This document shows, one piece after another, positions 27,447 through 35,221 of a stretch of 64,000 nucleotides of DNA. The first letter of the stretch is position 1; the number at the start of each line of letters is the position of its first letter. This DNA comes from an uncultured Acidimicrobiales bacterium (GTDB taxonomy: Bacteria; Actinomycetota; Acidimicrobiia; Acidimicrobiales; SHLQ01), in NCBI GenBank assembly GCA_937934655.1, contig CALGZB010000245.1:13448-77447 (forward strand), read 5' to 3'. The notes beneath the pieces were generated by a model that was not told where the DNA came from, searched no databases, and saw only the letters and a program-made list of their open reading frames with translations. The translations under genes were made by a program, and so were the position numbers.

Positions 27447-28778
27447 TTAGGCAGCGGCGGCCGGATTCCCGGGTAGAAGTATGTCGAGTTGGCTTTGACG
27501 CTCAGGTCGTCCGAAGAGGAACCCCTGCGCAAGATCGCAACCCATTTCGGTGAGCATGGTGCGCTGTTCGAGGTGCTCGACGCCGGTGGCCATCGCAACG
27601 ACACCGAGTTCGTGAGCTAGCGACACCATGTGTTGCACGATGATTGTGTCTTCGCTTGAGATTCCGAGCCCGGCAACGAATGCTCGGGGAATCGTGATGG
27701 CGTCAACGTTGACATCGCGCAGGGTCGTCAACGTCGAGACCCCGACACCGAAGTCGTTCAGACCAATCCGAACGCCCTCCTGTTTGAGTCGGCGAAGCCG
27801 AGACCATGTTTTCTCTTGGTTGTGCTGAAGCGCTTGATCGGTGATGTCGAGCAAAAGACGTTCGGGTGAGAGTCCGCTTGCCGAGACCGCTCCAAGAACC
27901 GAATCGGCAAACTTTGGTTCCTCAAGGTGGGTGCCGGCGATGTTTACCGAAACCATGAGCGACCGGTCCATTCGCTTACTCCATCGTTGCACCGAACGGC
28001 ATGCCTCCTCCATGACCCATCGATAAATGGGTATGGCGAGTTCGGATCGTTCGACAAGATGAAGGAATTCGCCTGGGAGGCTCATCTGCATGCCATCGAT
28101 CGATCCAGCGGGGTCGATCCAGCGAAGGAGGGCCTCGAAACCGATCAGGTTCTTGTCGCCGGGGGTCACGATTGGCTGGTAGTACAGGCAGAATTCGTTG
28201 CGAGCAAAGGCTCTCTCGAGTCGGTCGTCGACTTTTGAGACCGCGGCGTCACTTTGGGTGACGTCGTTGACATACACGGCAAGATCGAGTCCGGACCGTT
28301 GCGCATCTCGCAGCGCGCTGCGGGCGCTGGCTAAGAGGTCGGCGCCTTCTCGATGGGGCGGCTGACGCAGAACGCCACCGACGGTCACGCTTGGGATAGC
28401 GATGGTATCGCCGGTCTCGATTGGCTCTCGGACGATCGTCAGAAGGCTTTGGCACAAGCGTGGAAGGTCAAGGCTGTTGACATCGTGGAGCAAGATCTGA
28501 AACTCGGGGCCCAAGCCACGGGCGATGTGCCCGTCATCGGCGCCGATGACAGCAACCAGACGTTCGGCAACGCTGGCAAGCACGTAGTTTCCGTGATCGG
28601 GCCCAAATTGATCGTTGATATCGGACAGGTTTTCGAGCCGAACAAGGATCACCGACGACGGAGTCGTGGTCAGAGGGGTGGCAACGGCGTTATTCACCCA
28701 CCGAAGAAAAGCCTCGCGTGGCGCCAGCCCAGTGATCGGGTCGGGGTGGTGTTCTCTCAAAATCGACTTACGGAACAT
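27447..28778 (-). CDS. Sensor-less GGDEF-EAL protein, paralog of the downstream gene; GGDEF degenerate, EAL triplet intact
   Basis: DPITGL, a GGDEF site reading LGPEF, and FEALLRW. It shares DITDQ, NDFGVG and ITIPR with its neighbour. The EGVE position reads ATGVE. Confidence 0.8.
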   Translation of the reverse strand: MFRKSILREHHPDPITGLAPREAFLRWVNNAVATPLTTTPSSVILVRLENLSDINDQFGPDHGNYVLASVAERLVAVIGADDGHIARGLGPEFQILLHDVNSLDLPRLCQSLLTIVREPIETGDTIAIPSVTVGGVLRQPPHREGADLLASARSALRDAQRSGLDLAVYVNDVTQSDAAVSKVDDRLERAFARNEFCLYYQPIVTPGDKNLIGFEALLRWIDPAGSIDGMQMSLPGEFLHLVERSELAIPIYRWVMEEACRSVQRWSKRMDRSLMVSVNIAGTHLEEPKFADSVLGAVSASGLSPERLLLDITDQALQHNQEKTWSRLRRLKQEGVRIGLNDFGVGVSTLTTLRDVNVDAITIPRAFVAGLGISSEDTIIVQHMVSLAHELGVVAMATGVEHLEQRTMLTEMGCDLAQGFLFGRPERQSQLDILLPGNPAAAA

Positions 28779-28848: not shown

Positions 28849-29955
28849 ATGTCTTCAGAATCAGTGTCTTCCGAACTCGATACCCCCTCCCCGGCCGCAA
28901 CCGCCCCGGTCCGCTCCACTGGCGCCGTTGTGGCTGCCGTTGTCCTCCTCGTTGCGCTGGCCGCTACCGCCGCATGGCTGATTCGGGGTCAGCTCGCGAA
29001 CGACAGCCCAATCCAAGCGCAGGAATGGGTGCCCCTCCCGCCCAAGGAATGCATCCCGGGTGAGTCATCGGACATCTTGGTCCCAAATTGTGGAGCATGG
29101 ATCGGCTCAACCGACCGACGAAACGACAACCTCGATCTCGCCGTTCAGGAACAAATCCTCGGCGAGACCATCGACCTGGTTCGTCTCTACGCAGTTGGGC
29201 CCGACGCAACGTTCTTCCCGGTCGAACATCAGACACTGGCCGATGGCGGGCGGACGCTGGTGTACTCATGGAAGGTAAGCACCGATAACGCGGCTGGGCC
29301 GGTGTGGCGCCGAGTCGCCAGCGGCGAGTTCGACAACGAGCTGCGTCGGGCGGCAAACGAAATCGTCGCGTCCGGCCACCCGGTGCTGTTTTCGTTGCAC
29401 CACGAGCCCGAGGACGACTCGGAGACGCTCGGTGGTTCGTATGGAACTGACGCCGACTACCGGGCAATGCTTCGGCACGCCCATGAAATTATGGAGCCCA
29501 TTGGCGGCGATCAGCTGATTTGGTTTGTGAACTACATGGGGCACTCGTTTGGTTCCTTCGACCAGGTCGAAGCGATGTACCCGGGCGACGACATGCTCGA
29601 TTGGGTGTCGTGGAATCCCTACAACTGGTTTGGTTGTCACGGCGATGCTCCGTGGAAAGGGTTCGCCGAACAGGCCGCGCCGTTCTACGACTGGGCCCGC
29701 ACCAACCACCCTGATATGCCGTTGATGATCGGTGAAACCGCCACCAACGAGGACCCTGCCGACCCGCAGGCCAAAGCCGAGTGGATTCTCGATATGGGTA
29801 CAACACTCCAGGCAGAGATGCCCCACATCCGAGCGGTGCTTTGGTTCCAGCAGAGCACCGACACCGGGTTCTGTGAGCGACGCTGGGATTCCTCGGCCCC
29901 ATCGACCGATGCGTTCGCCGAGCTCGCTGCGTCGGAGTACTTCTCGCCCCGTTAG
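28849..29955 (+). CDS. Membrane-anchored glycoside hydrolase, clan GH-A (GH26-like)
   Basis: N-terminal TM helix AVVAAVVLLVALAATAAWLI. Candidate acid/base residue in SLHHEPEDD and nucleophile in LMIGETATNE. WNPYNWF aromatic block. The family call is tentative. Confidence 0.45.
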   Translation: MSSESVSSELDTPSPAATAPVRSTGAVVAAVVLLVALAATAAWLIRGQLANDSPIQAQEWVPLPPKECIPGESSDILVPNCGAWIGSTDRRNDNLDLAVQEQILGETIDLVRLYAVGPDATFFPVEHQTLADGGRTLVYSWKVSTDNAAGPVWRRVASGEFDNELRRAANEIVASGHPVLFSLHHEPEDDSETLGGSYGTDADYRAMLRHAHEIMEPIGGDQLIWFVNYMGHSFGSFDQVEAMYPGDDMLDWVSWNPYNWFGCHGDAPWKGFAEQAAPFYDWARTNHPDMPLMIGETATNEDPADPQAKAEWILDMGTTLQAEMPHIRAVLWFQQSTDTGFCERRWDSSAPSTDAFAELAASEYFSPR

Positions 29956-30743
29956 GTCGGAGGTGCGTTCAGGACCTGCGCAAGGACCTCGGGAACGTCT
30001 TGCTGATGAACGATCGTCAGCCGTGACGTGGTTCGGGTGAGCGCGACGTAAAGCAAACTCAGTCCGTTGGGCTGTTCAAGGATCTGCGCTGGCTCGACCA
30101 CGATGACCGAATCAAATTCGAGTCCTTTGGACTTCCAGGCCGACAGCCACTGCACTCCCTCGCGAACGAATCGAGCCGATTCGCTTGCGCCGATTACCGC
30201 CACCTGCCCCGCTGGCAGAGCCATACGTTCGGCCAGAACGACGTCGGTGATCTGATCGATGTCGTCGACTCGGACAGTGGTTGGCGGGTACCCCGACGTT
30301 CGAATCGACTGAGGAGCGGCAAGCTCGGGCGCGAGCTCGGCAAGCACCGCCGAGGCGAGGTCATTGACCTCGGCCGGCGACCGGTAGTTAATGGTGAGCT
30401 CTTGGTAGCTGAAGTCCTTGACCGTTTCGGGAAGGTGATCGCGCCAGGATCCAGGCTCACCAATAGAACGTTGCGCAAGATCGCCAACGATGGTCATCGA
30501 CCCGCCACGAGCACGGCGAGTAATCATCCGCCACTGCATGGGGGTGAGGTCCTGGGCTTCGTCGACGATGACATGCCCGAACCGCCATGCCCGTTGGCCC
30601 GCCGCGAGTTCTTGCAGCGTGACGCCGTGATCGACGAACGCATCGTCGACGTTGTCGACCGCGATCTCCGACATCGGGATGCCATCGTTGTCGAGCAGCG
30701 GGTAGCCCTCGGGTTGCTCTCGCAGCACATGGTCGTCAGTCAT
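29952..30743 (-). CDS. C-terminal part of a HelD/UvrD-like helicase (motifs II-VI)
   Basis: HVIVDEAQDLTPMQW (motif II), SMTIVGDLAQRS (III), KGLEFDSVIVVEP and LLYVALTRTTSRLTIV (VI). The ATG follows the TAG of the upstream ORF directly and in the same frame. Confidence 0.75.
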   Translation of the reverse strand: MTDDHVLREQPEGYPLLDNDGIPMSEIAVDNVDDAFVDHGVTLQELAAGQRAWRFGHVIVDEAQDLTPMQWRMITRRARGGSMTIVGDLAQRSIGEPGSWRDHLPETVKDFSYQELTINYRSPAEVNDLASAVLAELAPELAAPQSIRTSGYPPTTVRVDDIDQITDVVLAERMALPAGQVAVIGASESARFVREGVQWLSAWKSKGLEFDSVIVVEPAQILEQPNGLSLLYVALTRTTSRLTIVHQQDVPEVLAQVLNAPPT

Positions 30744-32381
30744 CTATGAGCCCGCCGGTCGTTCGTAATCGAGATATTCATCTTCCACGAGTTCCTCGAG
30801 AGACCACAGTTCTTGTTCTTTCTCTTCGGATTCATCGTCAAGATAGTCATCGGCATCATCGGACTCGTCGTAGGCATCGGCCATTTCGAACTCATCGGCT
30901 TCGTCACGTTCGACGGTGCGTTCCGAATCGATGCCGCCGCCTAGGGCTCCTCCAACGACGGCAAGGAGTTCGTCGAGAAGCGGAACATCGGCCTCGCTCC
31001 ATCGCCGGCGGTCGAGGTTTCGTTCACGGTCACGATCGCGTGCCAACAGGTCGCGTTGTTCGTCCGACAAACCAGCCGTCGCAGAAGCGGCCCGGAGGAT
31101 CGATGGCGAACCGAGCGTGTCGTTGAGGGCCTGTTCGGGGGTAAGTCTTGGCCAGTGTTGAAGAAGAAACAGGTCCACATCGGTTGACGACTCAAACGCG
31201 GCCCGAGCTTCCTCGAGGTCGCCAAAGGACGGGTCGTAGCCGGCGGCGGACAGCGCATCGATGAGCGCTCCCCGGAAAGCTGCGGATCCGTCGTTGTGCG
31301 TGCGGTGACGTTGGGCGGTGTCAAACATTTCCGTGACCTGGTCAACACCAAGGCTGACCTTGGCCGAGCCGTACCAAGCCGAAAGACCAACAGAGGGGCG
31401 GCGGCGTCGAAGCGCTACCGCGGCAGAAAGGAACTCGGCCATAACGGCTAGTCCCTTTACGTGAGCCGTCTCGGGCGTGTCGACTCGCCCCATGAGGATC
31501 CCGGGATACAACTCGGCGGCGGTAACAGACACCACGCCGGTTTCGCCGAGCGATGGCAGTACGCCACTGATGTAGTTGAGGAACTCGTTGGTGGGGCCGA
31601 CAACGAGCACGCCGCTCTCGGCGAGTGCAGCGCGCTGGTTGTAGAGCAGGTAGGCAGCGCGATGCAGCGCGACGACGGTCTTGCCAGTGCCCGGACCGCC
31701 CTGGACGATGAGCGCCCCTTTTGCCGGAGCCCGAATGACGGCGTCCTGCTCGCTTTGGATGGTGGCAACCACACTCTTCATGCGCCCGTCGGAGGGCTGA
31801 TTGAGCGCCGCCATGATGGCCGCTTCACCGCGAAGACCGATGGTGTTCTCCATCGTCACGGCGTCGAACACTTCATCGGAGTAGCCCGTGAGCTGGCCAG
31901 TTATGGGGTCATACAGCAGGTGGCGCCGGTGGGTGATCCCGAGATTGTCGAGCGGCGTCGCCCGGTAGAACGGTGCCGCAGCGTGGGCACGCCAGTCGAC
32001 TAGCAGCACATCGTCGCCCTCGTCGGCGGCGTAGTCGATAACGCTGAGGCGCCCGACATAGGTTCGTTCGTGGTCGGCGGTCGTGATGTGGCCAAAGGCA
32101 AGCGCCTGCCCGACTGCTTCGAGTTCGCGAACCCGCCGAATTGCGTGCATCGCCCGCGCCGATGCCTGCCGAACCGAAACCGCTTGGGCGGCGGCTTCGC
32201 CTTCACCATCGTCGTCGGCGAGGTCTCGGATACCGTCCTCGGTTTGTTCGGCCGACTCGTCGGCGAGACGGGTGGCGTTCGCGCGCGCGTCGTCGAGGTG
32301 CCGGGCGTGAACCTGACGGATGTGGGCCAGAGCTGCGTGCTCGACGGCGAGTTCGGAAGCGGGTGAATCGTCGATACTCAA
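30744..32381 (-). CDS. N-terminal part of a HelD/UvrD-like helicase (Walker A, domain 1A, acidic tract), ending at an in-frame TAG
   Basis: VQGGPGTGKTVVALHRAAYLLY (Walker A) and VVGPTNEFLNYI (Ia). A hyper-acidic tail of about 50 aa (DEADEFEMADAYDESDDADDYLDDESEEKEQE...). Start is uncertain: TTG at 32381 (MSIDDSPAS) or the ORF-track ATG at 32537. Confidence 0.7.
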   Translation of the reverse strand: MSIDDSPASELAVEHAALAHIRQVHARHLDDARANATRLADESAEQTEDGIRDLADDDGEGEAAAQAVSVRQASARAMHAIRRVRELEAVGQALAFGHITTADHERTYVGRLSVIDYAADEGDDVLLVDWRAHAAAPFYRATPLDNLGITHRRHLLYDPITGQLTGYSDEVFDAVTMENTIGLRGEAAIMAALNQPSDGRMKSVVATIQSEQDAVIRAPAKGALIVQGGPGTGKTVVALHRAAYLLYNQRAALAESGVLVVGPTNEFLNYISGVLPSLGETGVVSVTAAELYPGILMGRVDTPETAHVKGLAVMAEFLSAAVALRRRRPSVGLSAWYGSAKVSLGVDQVTEMFDTAQRHRTHNDGSAAFRGALIDALSAAGYDPSFGDLEEARAAFESSTDVDLFLLQHWPRLTPEQALNDTLGSPSILRAASATAGLSDEQRDLLARDRDRERNLDRRRWSEADVPLLDELLAVVGGALGGGIDSERTVERDEADEFEMADAYDESDDADDYLDDESEEKEQELWSLEELVEDEYLDYERPAGS

Positions 32382-32528
32382 GCATTCCAGCGAACGGCCT
32401 GAAGTCCTCGGGCAGTCGGCACTTCTTTTCGCGGTCGTTTGGCCTGACCTTCGTTGTGAAAACCCTGTTGGAACGACTTTTCCCGCCGATTGGCACAGAA
32501 GCCCACTCGTCCCAGTGGAGACATTTTC

Positions 32529-33407
32529 ATGGAACAACGACCTTGGTCGGACGCTCTTCGAGCGGTCCCCGCCCTACAGGACGGCGACCTCGCGGTTGCT
32601 CGGAAGGCAGGAAGCGCGCTCGACAAACTCATCGGACTTACCGATGACCCCTTCCACCACATCGGAATCGTGGTGGAACGAACGATCGACGACCAGACGG
32701 AGCCGTGGGTAATCGAGCACACGTTTGCCGGATGCACGGCGCGGAAACTCAGTGTGTTCGTGGATCACTACGACGATGTCGGGTTCGTCTACCTCGATCT
32801 CCCGCCTGAGGAGCGAGCGCACCTGCGGCACACGGCGCTGGGGTACCTCGGCACCACACCCCGTTATGCATGGGACGAGGTGTTCCTTGTGGGTATGTGC
32901 GCTCTTGCTCGCAAGACCCGCGGAACAAAACACTCGCTTTCTCGGCGCCGGTGGTTGACGTCGCTCGAAGCAGCGATCCACCGTCGGAACTCGTCGGAGC
33001 GCCGAGCAGTCTTCTGCACCACCTTTGTGATGCAACTGTTCGCCGACGCCAACATCGCGACGCCGAAGCACCTCGGTTTGCTGGCGCCTCCTCGCTCGTG
33101 CACGACCCAACGACTTCGTGCGAGCAAGCACGACAAGATGATGCGGCGTCCGCTACCCGTGCAGATGCTGGCGGGCGTTGGTTCGCTGATGGTTCTGCTG
33201 TGCTCGGCGACAACCTTGATGTTGTCGTTAACCTTCACTGGCCGGCCGGCCGCGTCACCCCCGCTACTTTCGCCCAGCGACTTCTGGCGGCATATGCCGG
33301 CGCAACACCGGTGGGCCCGCCAAAACAACACGGGGCCGACGCCAGAAGAACGGACGTCGACCCAGGTGCTGCTGGGACGCTCTAAGCAGCGGGAAATCGC
33401 AGCATAG
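32529..33407 (+). CDS. Putative permuted papain-like amidase (YaeF/YiiX, C92-like); C-terminal third of uncertain frame
   Basis: GDLAVARKAGS...HHIGIVVE...WVIEHT...YAWDE...VFCTTFVMQLF resembles the YiiX order (GD..., H, ..., C). An alternative ATG lies at 32490. The region after about 33100 has two competing coding-like frames. Confidence 0.4.
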   Translation: MEQRPWSDALRAVPALQDGDLAVARKAGSALDKLIGLTDDPFHHIGIVVERTIDDQTEPWVIEHTFAGCTARKLSVFVDHYDDVGFVYLDLPPEERAHLRHTALGYLGTTPRYAWDEVFLVGMCALARKTRGTKHSLSRRRWLTSLEAAIHRRNSSERRAVFCTTFVMQLFADANIATPKHLGLLAPPRSCTTQRLRASKHDKMMRRPLPVQMLAGVGSLMVLLCSATTLMLSLTFTGRPAASPPLLSPSDFWRHMPAQHRWARQNNTGPTPEERTSTQVLLGRSKQREIAA

Positions 33408-33413
33408 GTAGCG

Positions 33414-34259
33414 TTATGCGGTGGCTTCCTCGGTTGCGTTGTCTGCCCCGCCGAATCCGCCGCGCTGGCCGCCACGACGTCCGCTGCGGGAGAAGTCGGC
33501 TTCGCCGTTCACGATGGCCTCGATCTTCTCTTCCATCTGGGCGAGCTTGTCAGCTGCATCTTCTTCAGTAATACGGCCACTCTCGACGGCAACGTCGATG
33601 CGTGCGGCAGCGTCAGCTACGAGTGCTTCGACAACCGCGTCGACGGAGACGCCGTTTGCCTCGGCAAGTTCAGCGATGGTGGTTCCGGCGGCCTTGGCTT
33701 CTTGGAGTTCTTCAGCCGAGATACCGAGCACGTCGGCGATGGTTTCGCTTTGCTGGCCACGGTTACCGTGGTTGCCATGATGGCCACGGTTTCCTCGGTG
33801 GCCCTTGCTTCCGCCTTCGCCGTTGATAACGGCTTCGACCTTCTCGGCCAAGCCGTCACGACGCTCGGCGGCTTCTTCGTCGGTGAGGCGACCATCTGCA
33901 ACCGCTTCGTCAATTTTTTCGTTTGCCTGGGCGACGAGGAAGTCGACGAGGTTCTGCACGTCAACGCCTTGAGCCTCGGCGATTTCGGCGAGGGTTGAGC
34001 CGGAGCTGAGCGCTTCGGTCAGTTCGTCGGCGGTCATTCCAAGAACTTCAGCGATTGCTGCACGACGCTCGGCCTTGCTTGCTGAGCGGTCGCTGCGTTC
34101 GGTGCTGTCTTGTTCTTCTTGAACCTCGGGGGCATCTGGCGTGTCGGCATCCTGTGCACCGGCAGAGGTGACGTCACTGGTGGTGGCACCAAAGACACCG
34201 CCAACAAACATCGCTGTTCCAAGTCCTGCGGCGGTGAGAGTTTTTTTGATGGGGGTCAT
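33414..34259 (-). CDS. Secreted protein with two ~80-aa internal repeats separated by a His/Gly/Asn/Arg-rich linker
   Basis: Signal-like N-terminus MTPIKKTLTAAGLGTAMFVGGVFGA. Repeat 1 covers 33816-34058 and repeat 2 covers 33501-33743 (IA(E/D)VLG(M/I)(T/S)A(D/E)EL...VNGE). The linker is GSKGHRGNRGHHGNHGNRG. Confidence 0.6.
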   Translation of the reverse strand: MTPIKKTLTAAGLGTAMFVGGVFGATTSDVTSAGAQDADTPDAPEVQEEQDSTERSDRSASKAERRAAIAEVLGMTADELTEALSSGSTLAEIAEAQGVDVQNLVDFLVAQANEKIDEAVADGRLTDEEAAERRDGLAEKVEAVINGEGGSKGHRGNRGHHGNHGNRGQQSETIADVLGISAEELQEAKAAGTTIAELAEANGVSVDAVVEALVADAAARIDVAVESGRITEEDAADKLAQMEEKIEAIVNGEADFSRSGRRGGQRGGFGGADNATEEATA

Positions 34260-34339
34260 TGTGATTCCTTTTCGGAGCCGATGGCTAGGGTTGTTCTCAC
34301 CACGAACTTCGTGATGTGAACTCCATGCTGCGGGTGCGC

Positions 34340-34393
34340 TGTAAGTAGTAGACCAAGGCTTTGTAAGGACTTTGTAAGAAGCAGTAATAAAAT
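34340..34393 (+). promoter_or_regulatory. Helically phased TGTAAG direct repeats plus an AT-rich -10-like TAAAAT immediately upstream of the 34400 ATG (probable leaderless promoter)
   Basis: TGTAAG at 34340, 34362 and 34373, giving spacings of 22 and 11 bp. The last two sit inside the 11-bp units CTTTGTAAGGA / CTTTGTAAGAA. TAAAAT at 34388-34393 ends 6 nt before the ATG. Confidence 0.45.
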
Positions 34394-34399
34394 CTTGCA

Positions 34400-35221
34400 A
34401 TGTCCTCTACTCCTGCGACAGCCTCGCCCGCTCCCCCATCGACCGGCGTGGGCCGGGCCCTCATTGCCGCTGGGGTTATCGGGATCATCGCCAGCCTTAT
34501 CGGGATCGTTGTGGTGTGGATGTTGCTCGACGACCTTGGCGATGGCGTCGATCAGTCGATCGAACTCACCACCGAGACACTCAATACGCTCGACGAGACG
34601 TTGGTGCTGGCCGACGACATCACCTCGACGGTTTCGGGCAGCACCGCCACTCTCGACTCGACGGTGCAACGACTGTCGGATTCGGTCGATGAGGGCAGCA
34701 CTGTACTCACGAGCTTGTCTGAGTTGAGCGGAACCGAACTGCCCGAGTCGATCGATGGTGTGGTGGAGGGCATCGACAACCTCACCGGCGTCGCCCGCAC
34801 GATCGACAACACCTTGTCGCAGCTAAGCGCAATCCCCTTTGGCCCCAACTATGACCCGGAGAACAGCTTCGCCGGCACCCTCACCGAGATTCGCGATGAT
34901 CTCGAGCCAACCGCCACAGAGCTGCGCTCCATCGCCCCGGATCTTTCCTCGCTGGCCACCACCGTGAGCGACTCTGAGGCCGATCTCGACCAGCTCAGCA
35001 GCGACATCGCCGCCCTTCGGGCGAGCCTTGAAGACACCACCCCGCTCATATCGGACTACCGCGATCGGGTGGCCGAGGCGCAGCGATTGGCTGCCGACAC
35101 CCAGGGCGACCTTGGGCGCGATCGCAACTTTGCCAAGGTTGTCAGCCTCATCCTCGGCCTAGCAATTGCCGTCGGCCAGCTCGTGCCGATCCTTTACGGG
35201 CGTGACCGACTTCGCACGTAA
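34400..35221 (+). CDS. Membrane protein with TM helices at both ends and a long Ser/Thr/Asp/Leu-rich helical ectodomain, hypothetical
   Basis: An N-terminal TM helix (ALIAAGVIGIIASLIGIVVVWMLL) and a C-terminal TM helix (VVSLILGLAIAVGQLVPILY) flank about 200 aa of low-complexity helical sequence. Confidence 0.6.
   Translation: MSSTPATASPAPPSTGVGRALIAAGVIGIIASLIGIVVVWMLLDDLGDGVDQSIELTTETLNTLDETLVLADDITSTVSGSTATLDSTVQRLSDSVDEGSTVLTSLSELSGTELPESIDGVVEGIDNLTGVARTIDNTLSQLSAIPFGPNYDPENSFAGTLTEIRDDLEPTATELRSIAPDLSSLATTVSDSEADLDQLSSDIAALRASLEDTTPLISDYRDRVAEAQRLAADTQGDLGRDRNFAKVVSLILGLAIAVGQLVPILYGRDRLRT

Follow-up and report, generated by a model that had tools for sequence, protein, structure and literature searches.

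A class II HelD-type RNA polymerase recycling ATPase apparently encoded as two subunits in an Acidimicrobiia-type clade

A locus in DNA of an uncultured Acidimicrobiales bacterium (64,000 nucleotides, hereafter, the window: GenBank assembly GCA_937934655.1, contig CALGZB010000245.1, positions 13,448 to 77,447 of the forward strand) most probably encodes a natural two-subunit class II HelD (HelR-like) RNA polymerase recycling ATPase, formed by the products of two adjacent co-directional genes, here named helD-N and helD-C, and conserved in a large Acidimicrobiia-type clade; we assign this reading a probability of about 85%. HelD and HelR proteins clear stalled RNA polymerase, and the actinobacterial ones displace rifamycins through an acidic primary-channel loop. 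Class II members attach to the RNA polymerase core and free it of nucleic acids, their ATPase being stimulated by RNA polymerase. In window coordinates, the two open reading frames (ORFs) and their boundary are as follows:

30744..32381, minus strand: helD-N, 545 amino acids (aa) plus a TAG stop, from the ORF list; the same as gene call P0001
29952..30743, minus strand: helD-C, 263 aa plus a TAA stop, from the ORF list; the same as P0121
30741..30746, minus strand: gene boundary TAG / ATG, the helD-N stop abutting the helD-C start with no spacer and a shared frame

The minus strand reads ...CCG GCG GGC TCA TAG ATG ACT GAC GAC..., with TAG at 30746-30744 and ATG at 30743-30741 in one frame, and re-reading of the sequence thus bears out the in-frame TAG followed by ATG that an earlier note on this DNA, made from the sequence alone, had placed at 30744-30746. 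helD-N comprises the secondary-channel arm, the first half of the ATPase domain (1A-1), the clamp-opening (CO) domain, and an acidic tail; helD-C comprises a conserved head, the second ATPase half (1A-2), and the 2A domain. The assignment in that note of Walker A and motif Ia to the upstream ORF, and of motifs II, III, KGLEFD, and VI to the downstream ORF, agrees with the verified coordinates. Its range for the feature, 29952-32537, holds at the lower end; position 32537 is the mechanical limit of the open frame, and the helD-N start is likely TTG at 32381-32379 on the minus strand, yielding a 545-aa product that matches the public gene call P0001 (the first helix of the structural model described below begins at residue 7). 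Abutting stop and start codons are ordinary operon geometry. What goes beyond chance is that the boundary cuts one conserved motor and recurs at a homologous site in many genomes.

The search with the concatenated protein as a query yields 81 proteins lacking the C part among the best 120 matches; a truncated fused protein accounts for one of them, and the other 80 are N-only proteins (~490–650 aa, 52–84% identity) that end in an acidic tail. The remaining 39 of the best 120 are full-length fused proteins of ~700–1265 aa, with 44–60% identity. For the helD-C query, the best 120 matches are all stand-alone proteins of 248–308 aa, 117/120 of which begin with M, and among the 50%-identity clusters, whose representatives were searched exhaustively, about a dozen contain complete C pieces that stand alone. 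The split is kept in relatives down to ~50% identity. The source names, where present, are Acidimicrobiales, Acidimicrobiia, or Actinomycetota metagenome-assembled genomes, the taxonomy of the clade resting on these few names. One candidate fusion variant, P0391, is rejected, as there the C piece is run into the downstream gene through a frameshift.

The set of distinct split loci consists of 18: the window; L003–L007, from species-representative genomes, found in a contig profile search with the C-piece alignment; L083, L085, L087, and L089–L092, identified by looking up the exact proteins (two lie on contigs of at least 5 Mb); and L106, L122, L124, L152, and L172, from metagenomes, found with a DNA pattern for AQDLTPMQWRM. 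The latter pattern is not clade-specific, most of its matches being fused actinomycete-type genes or genes cut at contig ends. The matches listed in the contig profile search are mostly ordinary actinomycete HelDs, used here as the fused outgroup, with the 5 split loci among them; 74/74 classifiable actinomycete homologues among the listed matches are single ORFs. A separate case is L095, an actinomycete-type helD (36% identity) in which the frame of the N part stops and the frame of motif II is open for 187 codons upstream; the pattern resembles frameshift damage (an error or a pseudogene) at an unrelated position of a fused gene, in contrast to the clean boundary seen in the split clade.

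At each of the 18 split loci, helD-N and helD-C lie side by side in the same direction, and none of the loci has a spacer. The stop of helD-N overlaps or abuts the start of helD-C at 0, 4, or 8 nt: two loci, the window and its closest relative, show the abutting TAG / ATG; ten show a 4-nt overlap, [AG]TGA; and six show an 8-nt overlap, NTGNNTGA (here, L004 possibly has 14 nt). A start codon (ATG, GTG, or TTG) is found within the stop region at every locus. Since ATGA or GTGA overlaps are found in relatives from the window's subclade (81, 79, and 70% identity), the TAG / ATG state of the window is probably derived. The weight placed earlier on the single in-frame TAG is thus misplaced, 16/18 split loci overlapping by 4 or 8 nt in other frames. 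Comparison with orthologues, also proposed in the earlier note, shows that the split at the homologous point is conserved, and that none of the relatives have a sense codon there.

The concatenated protein has the class II HelD architecture: an arm with the DWR motif, 1A-1, CO, an acidic primary-channel module, 1A-2, and 2A. The NCBIfam profiles HelR and HelD_MYCSM match both pieces contiguously and in register, helD-N covering profile positions ~22–496 and helD-C ~487–713; the bit scores are 268/267/231 for helD-N and 157/181/168 for helD-C, the cut-offs being 750 and 1100 for HelR and 1051 for HelD_MYCSM. Because the scores fall below these cut-offs, the clade is to be regarded as a distant relative of the characterised HelDs. 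Pfam finds generic UvrD-type pieces only (UvrD-helicase, UvrD_C_2, UvrD_C). The best sequence match in PDB is Mycobacterium smegmatis HelD (E-value 2.6e-99, identity ~32%); in the phmmer alignment, residues 71–533 of the concatenated protein correspond to M. smegmatis HelD 49–500, and residues 587–802 to 509–721. The NCBIfam and PDB matches together uphold the initial HelD/UvrD-type assignment.

An AlphaFold2 model of concatenated helD-N and helD-C, built from a 93-sequence alignment, has a mean predicted local distance difference test score (pLDDT) of 85.2 and a predicted template modeling score (pTM) of 0.81; it represents a single concatenated chain with the stop codon left out, and hence does not address assembly in trans. 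An earlier model from 25 sequences (pLDDT 68, with a poor 1A-1 domain) is not used for conclusions. With Foldseek, the model superimposes over its whole length on M. smegmatis HelD chains from RNA polymerase complexes (8q3i_H, 6yxu_H; E-value ~1e-50, target-normalised template modeling score 0.69–0.74), the next match being Bacillus subtilis HelD. The elements outside the primary-channel module, and the head of helD-C, are as follows:

32115..32363, minus strand: antiparallel helical arm, the equivalent of the secondary-channel domain (residues 7–89; helices 7–54 and 60–89, pLDDT ~90)
31986..32000, minus strand: VDWRA, the HelD-specific DWR motif (residues 128–132)
31677..31700, minus strand: Walker A / motif I GGPGTGKT, in helD-N
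31590-31610, minus strand: motif Ia VLVVGPT, in helD-N
30942..31514, minus strand: CO domain inserted in 1A (residues ~290–480), aligned to the M. smegmatis CO region
30621..30743, minus strand: conserved head of helD-C (residues 1–41), M..D[HR].[IVL]R....PLLD.DG.P..E[IL]..D..D
30549..30566, minus strand: Walker B / motif II VDEAQD, in helD-C, invariant in 38 stand-alone C pieces
30471..30494, minus strand: motif III TIVGDLAQ, in helD-C
30111-30128, minus strand: 2A motif KGLEFD, in helD-C
30030-30050, minus strand: 2A motif VI YVALTRT, in helD-C

The N-terminal helical arm is followed by the DWR motif, as in class II, and D129, W130, and R131 do not vary in the 93-sequence alignment; beyond these, DWRA[HR] is seen throughout the Acidimicrobiia-type clade, with the proline replaced, while class I and class II HelDs are described with DWR[AS]P. 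The 1A domain is interrupted by the CO domain, which is helical in the model with pLDDT >90. The SF1 (superfamily 1) 1A–2A core is present with motifs I, Ia, II, III, and VI, spread over two polypeptides; instead of the single polypeptide of ~700–780 aa typical for class II, there are genes of 545 and 263 aa, and 18 split loci of this kind. In the 93-sequence alignment, G228 and P230–K234 of Walker A are invariant, G229 and T235 are not (T235 is nearly so), and D606, E607, and Q609 of motif II (concatenated numbering) are invariant. In the head of helD-C, D4, E26, and D34 are invariant in the alignment of 38 stand-alone C pieces. A further split subclade (L122, L124, and L172) shows another head motif, ...YP[IV].DE[MI]TGE..., which suggests that the head region diversifies between subclades, the gene boundary staying put.

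In the class II primary-channel-loop module, the gene boundary lies in an expanded acidic stretch that is hypervariable and disordered, and to which two further elements belong:

30747..30908, minus strand: acidic tail of helD-N (residues 492–545), with an alpha16-like helix RDEADEFEMADAY, an acidic run, and a WSLEEL element
30630..30854, minus strand: predicted disordered linker over the break (concatenated residues 510–583, that is, N 510–545 plus C 1–38)

The 54 residues 492–545 of helD-N contain 26 Asp and Glu and 3 Lys and Arg; the tract of about 50 aa described in the earlier note corresponds to 48 aa, residues 493–540 (30762-30905). For the C-terminal 60 aa of 80 split N pieces, the median Asp plus Glu fraction is 0.38 and the net charge −19, compared to an Asp plus Glu fraction of 0.14 in the core. 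The linker has pLDDT of 36–48 (means of 10-residue blocks), with low segments at 510–527 and 531–583, briefly exceeding 50 at 528–530; the rest of the model is at ~90 or above, and the boundary 545/546 falls in the middle of the linker. The span from DVPLLDE to W.[FY]GHV[IV]VDEAQ is 89–103 aa in actinomycete HelDs, 145 aa in the window, and 143–241 aa in most fused members of the window's clade; hence, the linker is a clade-specific insertion relative to actinomycete HelDs. Most fused members hold both the motifs of the N tail (DEFELA, DDPYFD) and the motif of the C head (DG.P..[ED]L..[ED].VD), so that the break falls between two conserved mini-motifs, in an acidic linker that is hypervariable.

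In M. smegmatis HelD, the primary-channel module consists of alpha16, the loop 473–494 with the tip 482-DDED-485 touching the catalytic Mg, and alpha17 (Kouba 2020, PMC7749160); an acidic-tipped loop between alpha16 and the second 1A half is a hallmark of class II (PMC7749160; 2022 review, PMC10719064). The window has an acidic module at the expected place, longer than usual and severed by the gene boundary, hence, with no closed loop. The likeness of the acidic tract to the acidic loop of actinobacterial HelDs, put forward earlier as a conjecture, is supported, as the break lies in the primary-channel-loop module. On the alignments, the cut can safely be placed between the equivalents of alpha16 and alpha18. 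The tip itself is discussed with the points against our reading. In M. abscessus HelR, the acidic tip residues E496/D497 lie next to the rifampicin pocket; acidic residues are abundant in the module of the window, and their positional match to E496/D497 is ambiguous.

The cut also separates the strands of the RecA-like 1A domain. The strands 223–228, 258–262, and 283–287 of helD-N and 602–605 (motif II) and 628–632 (motif III) of helD-C are all modeled with high confidence, and this arrangement, together with the whole-chain pTM of 0.81, fits a composite 1A domain built from both pieces. A different outcome of the split would be subfunctionalised pieces, the N piece acting as an ATP-independent RNA polymerase-binding factor and the C piece being separate or merely regulatory, with no obligate composite motor. 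The N-terminal domain and the primary-channel loop of M. smegmatis HelD can indeed remain on RNA polymerase with the CO and NTPase domains expelled (Kouba 2024, PMC11464796), and the N piece holds most of the RNA polymerase-contacting elements named in PMC7749160. However, across both pieces, the residues of Walker A, Walker B, and motifs III and VI show no variation or next to none, which is sensible only with a composite ATP site; the genes are adjacent and overlapping or abutting in 18/18 loci; and in the model, strands from the two pieces come together in a single 1A domain, predicted with high confidence. We consider such subfunctionalisation unlikely.

For the two-subunit HelD, the junctions suggest how its chains might be produced. 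An overlap of stop and start codons (ATGA or NTGNNTGA) is the classical geometry of translational coupling, often with a core resembling the Shine–Dalgarno (SD) sequence inside the upstream gene. Ribosomes ending on helD-N would restart on helD-C, giving roughly equimolar products; these would join non-covalently into one motor with an ATP site from both chains, and the complex would act on RNA polymerase like a single-chain HelD, its acidic primary-channel element being tethered at one end only. SD-like cores (at least 4 nt, 3–13 nt before the C start) are present in 7/13 tested loci, as compared to 12% at random positions in the same N genes, and no promoter-like or terminator-like site is found between helD-N and helD-C. 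Among the four explanations offered in the earlier note, a two-piece helicase made by termination and reinitiation is the one supported by this evidence.

Production of a single-chain HelD as the main product by programmed recoding, with UAG readthrough in the window and frameshifting in relatives, is very improbable. The in-frame stop in the window and in L083 is compatible with it, rare readthrough there giving the full chain with one extra residue in the disordered linker; but the frame of the C piece relative to the N piece is 0, +1, or −1 across the split loci, hence, no single mechanism fits, and a separate start codon is present at every locus. Slippery heptamers are not seen within 60 nt upstream of any N stop, and no further recoding signal (e.g., for pyrrolysine, Pyl) was looked for. 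As a conserved mechanism, readthrough (the third option of that note) or frameshifting is thereby excluded; rare UAG readthrough may occur in the window lineage, but is not required by anything. As the C frame takes all three values, the in-frame layout of the window is incidental and has no special recoding meaning.

The two remaining options, a sequencing error and a fresh pseudogene, are contradicted by the data and have next to no probability. The former, in which TAG is a miscalled sense codon in one true ORF of 809 codons, would agree with the shared frame of ORFs one codon apart and with the fused homologues of ~780–880 aa in related bacteria, but it disagrees with the identical junction in independent assemblies (two Logan contigs from different runs; the exact helD-N and helD-C proteins on record on contigs of 78,345 and 43,771 bp; and the exact helD-C protein called as its own gene on independent contigs), with TAGATG in the closest relative from two samples (L083/L084; 86% identity for the C piece and 83% for the N piece), and with 16 other split loci that have the boundary at the homologous place in different frames, no relative having a sense codon.

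Both helD-N and helD-C are under purifying selection. The Nei–Gojobori ratio of nonsynonymous to synonymous substitution rates (dN/dS) against four relatives is 0.09–0.12 for the N piece and 0.07–0.15 for the C piece; by sub-region, residues 1–45 of the C piece give 0.06–0.17, and the acidic tail, where measurable, gives 0.16. All these values are approximate, as dS is 1–1.9, near saturation. A recent nonsense mutation inactivating an intact helD, with the downstream ATG being coincidental, would leave a stop codon partway through a conserved gene of several domains, as is typical of decaying genes, and L095 shows that frameshift-type damage does happen in the HelD family; against this, dN/dS is 0.07–0.15 on both pieces with synonymous sites near saturation, all catalytic motifs are intact with no further lesions or relaxed selection seen in the window copy, the start codon of the C piece is directly followed by a conserved head, and relatives with as little as ~50% identity still have the split.

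Several observations weigh against a two-subunit class II HelD or against parts of it. Each piece, and even the simple sum of their scores, falls under the curated NCBIfam cut-offs for HelR and HelD. The window and L083 have no SD-like core before the C start. We infer coupling and heterodimer assembly from the junction geometry, the co-conservation of the pieces, and the model of a single concatenated chain. Depending on the sequence method, the equivalent of the tip that reaches the active site is placed on the N tail or on the C head: in pairwise phmmer alignment, the M. smegmatis tip and alpha17 (primary-channel loop, ~459–500) align to the tail of helD-N (LDDES...QELWSLEELVE); in the 93-sequence MAFFT alignment and with a profile of 16 actinomycete segments, N tails are matched to alpha16 only (profile positions 1 to ~38), and in 4/13 loci the match of the C head to the same profile extends back into an alpha17-like DL[IV]DAEELAER. 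Finally, fused and split forms interleave, so the split state may be selectively neutral rather than adaptive.

This interleaving is seen in a neighbor-joining (NJ) tree based on the N region common to both forms (404 columns, with 8 actinomycete sequences as the outgroup). The Acidimicrobiia-type sequences form one clade in 60/60 bootstrap replicates, as does the all-split subclade of the window (60/60); reciprocal monophyly of fused and split forms is recovered in 0/60, and Fitch parsimony yields 5–7 changes of state, the tree having a short-branched backbone for which NJ is a weak method. Toggling is mechanistically easy, because a single-base indel at a 4-nt overlap re-fuses the frames. 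The fused protein P0009 keeps '...VMAHADLL...' where its split neighbors start the C piece with 'MADRIV...'. In three other fused proteins (P0015, P0019, and P0024; 697–716 aa), the primary-channel module is reduced to 71 aa; its linker is basic (KKK/KKR), and the acidic run is missing. In effect, these are class II-like HelDs without the loop, which may have originated from a split pair by deletion-fusion. Both cases are hints of re-fusion, not proof. In addition, the fused P0023 (1265 aa) has a primary-channel segment of 241 aa with PITVD tandem repeats and a long extra N-terminal region.

A broader and more tentative reading, to which we give slightly less than even odds, is that of a clade-wide heterodimeric HelD with a two-chain ATP site, a free acidic tail or ends, no covalent link for pulling between 1A and the primary-channel loop, and at least five switches between the one-gene and two-gene states. 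If true, it would provide a natural experiment on the chain continuity required by the HelD mechanism. NTP binding or hydrolysis has been proposed to change the 1A extension linked to the primary-channel loop, helping to pull the loop from the primary channel (PMC11464796). A two-chain form without the covalent link would mean that either loop extraction needs no such link, or the clade releases by another route; in the former case, the connection of the loop to the second ATPase half would be dispensable in nature, which bears on the published pulling hypothesis. The acidic element would be tethered, we infer, only through the N piece (by alpha16 and the CO domain), through the head of the C piece, or through both. 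The boundary also offers a ready-made design for splitting mycobacterial HelD to probe which contacts require chain continuity, which may be relevant for specialists in RNA polymerase recycling and rifamycin protection.

A practical consequence concerns annotation. Both searches by domain architecture or length and annotation pipelines label the N pieces 'hypothetical protein' and give the C pieces as 'ATP-binding domain-containing protein', so that HelD is under-counted in Acidimicrobiia; split helD pairs also risk being flagged as pseudogenes, which calls for caution.

As for the neighborhood, the TAA stop of helD-C and the stop of a convergent ORF of 368 aa (28849..29955, plus strand) overlap tail-to-tail as TTAG at 29952-29955. 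The same 4-nt convergent overlap is found in L083 and L089, and a longer one, of 44 nt, in L087; the 368-aa protein has no Pfam match. Tandem GGDEF+EAL paralogues (cyclic di-GMP turnover) adjoin the locus at 27447-28778 (minus strand) and in the next gene downstream, as given by the gene calls of L001, and this neighborhood is syntenic across the subclade of the window (L083, L085, L087). Divergent from helD-N, at 32529-33407 (plus strand), is a Peptidase_C92-like gene (permuted papain-like amidase) just under the Pfam cut-off, with a counterpart upstream in L087. Further on, at 33414-34400 (minus strand), there is an ORF of 328 aa with two repeats of ~70 aa (...AEEL.EA...G.T.AE.AEA.GV.V...V..LV...) and Gly/Arg-rich spacers, showing only weak sub-threshold matches to LysM and HTH_35.

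HelR, the rifamycin-resistance subset of class II, is defined by an upstream palindromic rifamycin-associated element (RAE) of 19 bp. In the 241 bp upstream of helD-N (32340-32580), no inverted repeat (6-nt seed, arms of at least 7 nt, at most 40 nt apart) is found; the test is for any palindrome, not for the RAE consensus, and on this basis the defining element of HelR is not evident upstream of helD-N. A de novo search for palindromes yields an AT-rich, perfect or near-perfect one of 19 bp, GTTAGGAAAGTTTCCTAAC, upstream of fused helD in five Streptosporangiales genomes:

L031:4349, L048:4283, L050:1248, L058:4216, L079:4251: GTTAGGAAAGTTTCCTAAC sites upstream of fused helD

It could be the rifamycin-associated element. 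GTTAGGAAAGTTTCCTAAC is absent from the window and from all split loci, the upstream regions outside the window having been searched for GTTAGGAAAGTTTCCTAAC alone.

The open-access structural and phylogenetic literature on HelD and HelR (PMC7749160; PMC11464796; Larsen 2021, PMC8655204; PMC10719064; two HelR preprints) makes no mention of a split or two-gene HelD; none of the described HelD classes is split (PMC8655204, PMC10719064), and Acidimicrobiia are represented there only by the fused genes of Acidimicrobium and Ilumatobacter. The closest known system is class II HelD/HelR (M. smegmatis MSMEG_2174, PDB 6YXU/6YYS/8Q3I; M. abscessus and Streptomyces venezuelae HelR), alike in domain order and fold: the DWR arm, CO within 1A, the acidic element from alpha16 to the second 1A half, 2A, and the SF1 motifs are shared. 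The window differs in having two genes and two polypeptides, DWRAH in place of the DWRAP of M. smegmatis HelD, and an acidic module of ~145 aa versus 89–103 aa, which is cut and forms no closed loop. The fused relatives from the same clade (for example, P0005, P0008, and P0018; 780–880 aa, 45–60% identity) have the same expanded acidic segment, but are single ORFs with a continuous linker of 143–241 aa, P0005 being in another gene neighborhood.

Coupled operon pairs share with split helD the overlap or abutment of stop and start and, partly, the SD-like core; however, the split helD genes encode halves of one ancestral protein domain and not two different proteins, their coupling being putative. 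Other split enzymes, such as the cyanobacterial RNA polymerase beta-prime subunit and Nanoarchaeum reverse gyrase, offer an analogy: there, the break in the ancestral single chain lies at a surface or linker site that tolerates it, and the activity is presumed to be regained by non-covalent assembly. Split HelD is unrelated to these enzymes, and differs from them in that the cut parts Walker A from Walker B in one RecA-like domain, and in that its state has toggled repeatedly inside one clade.

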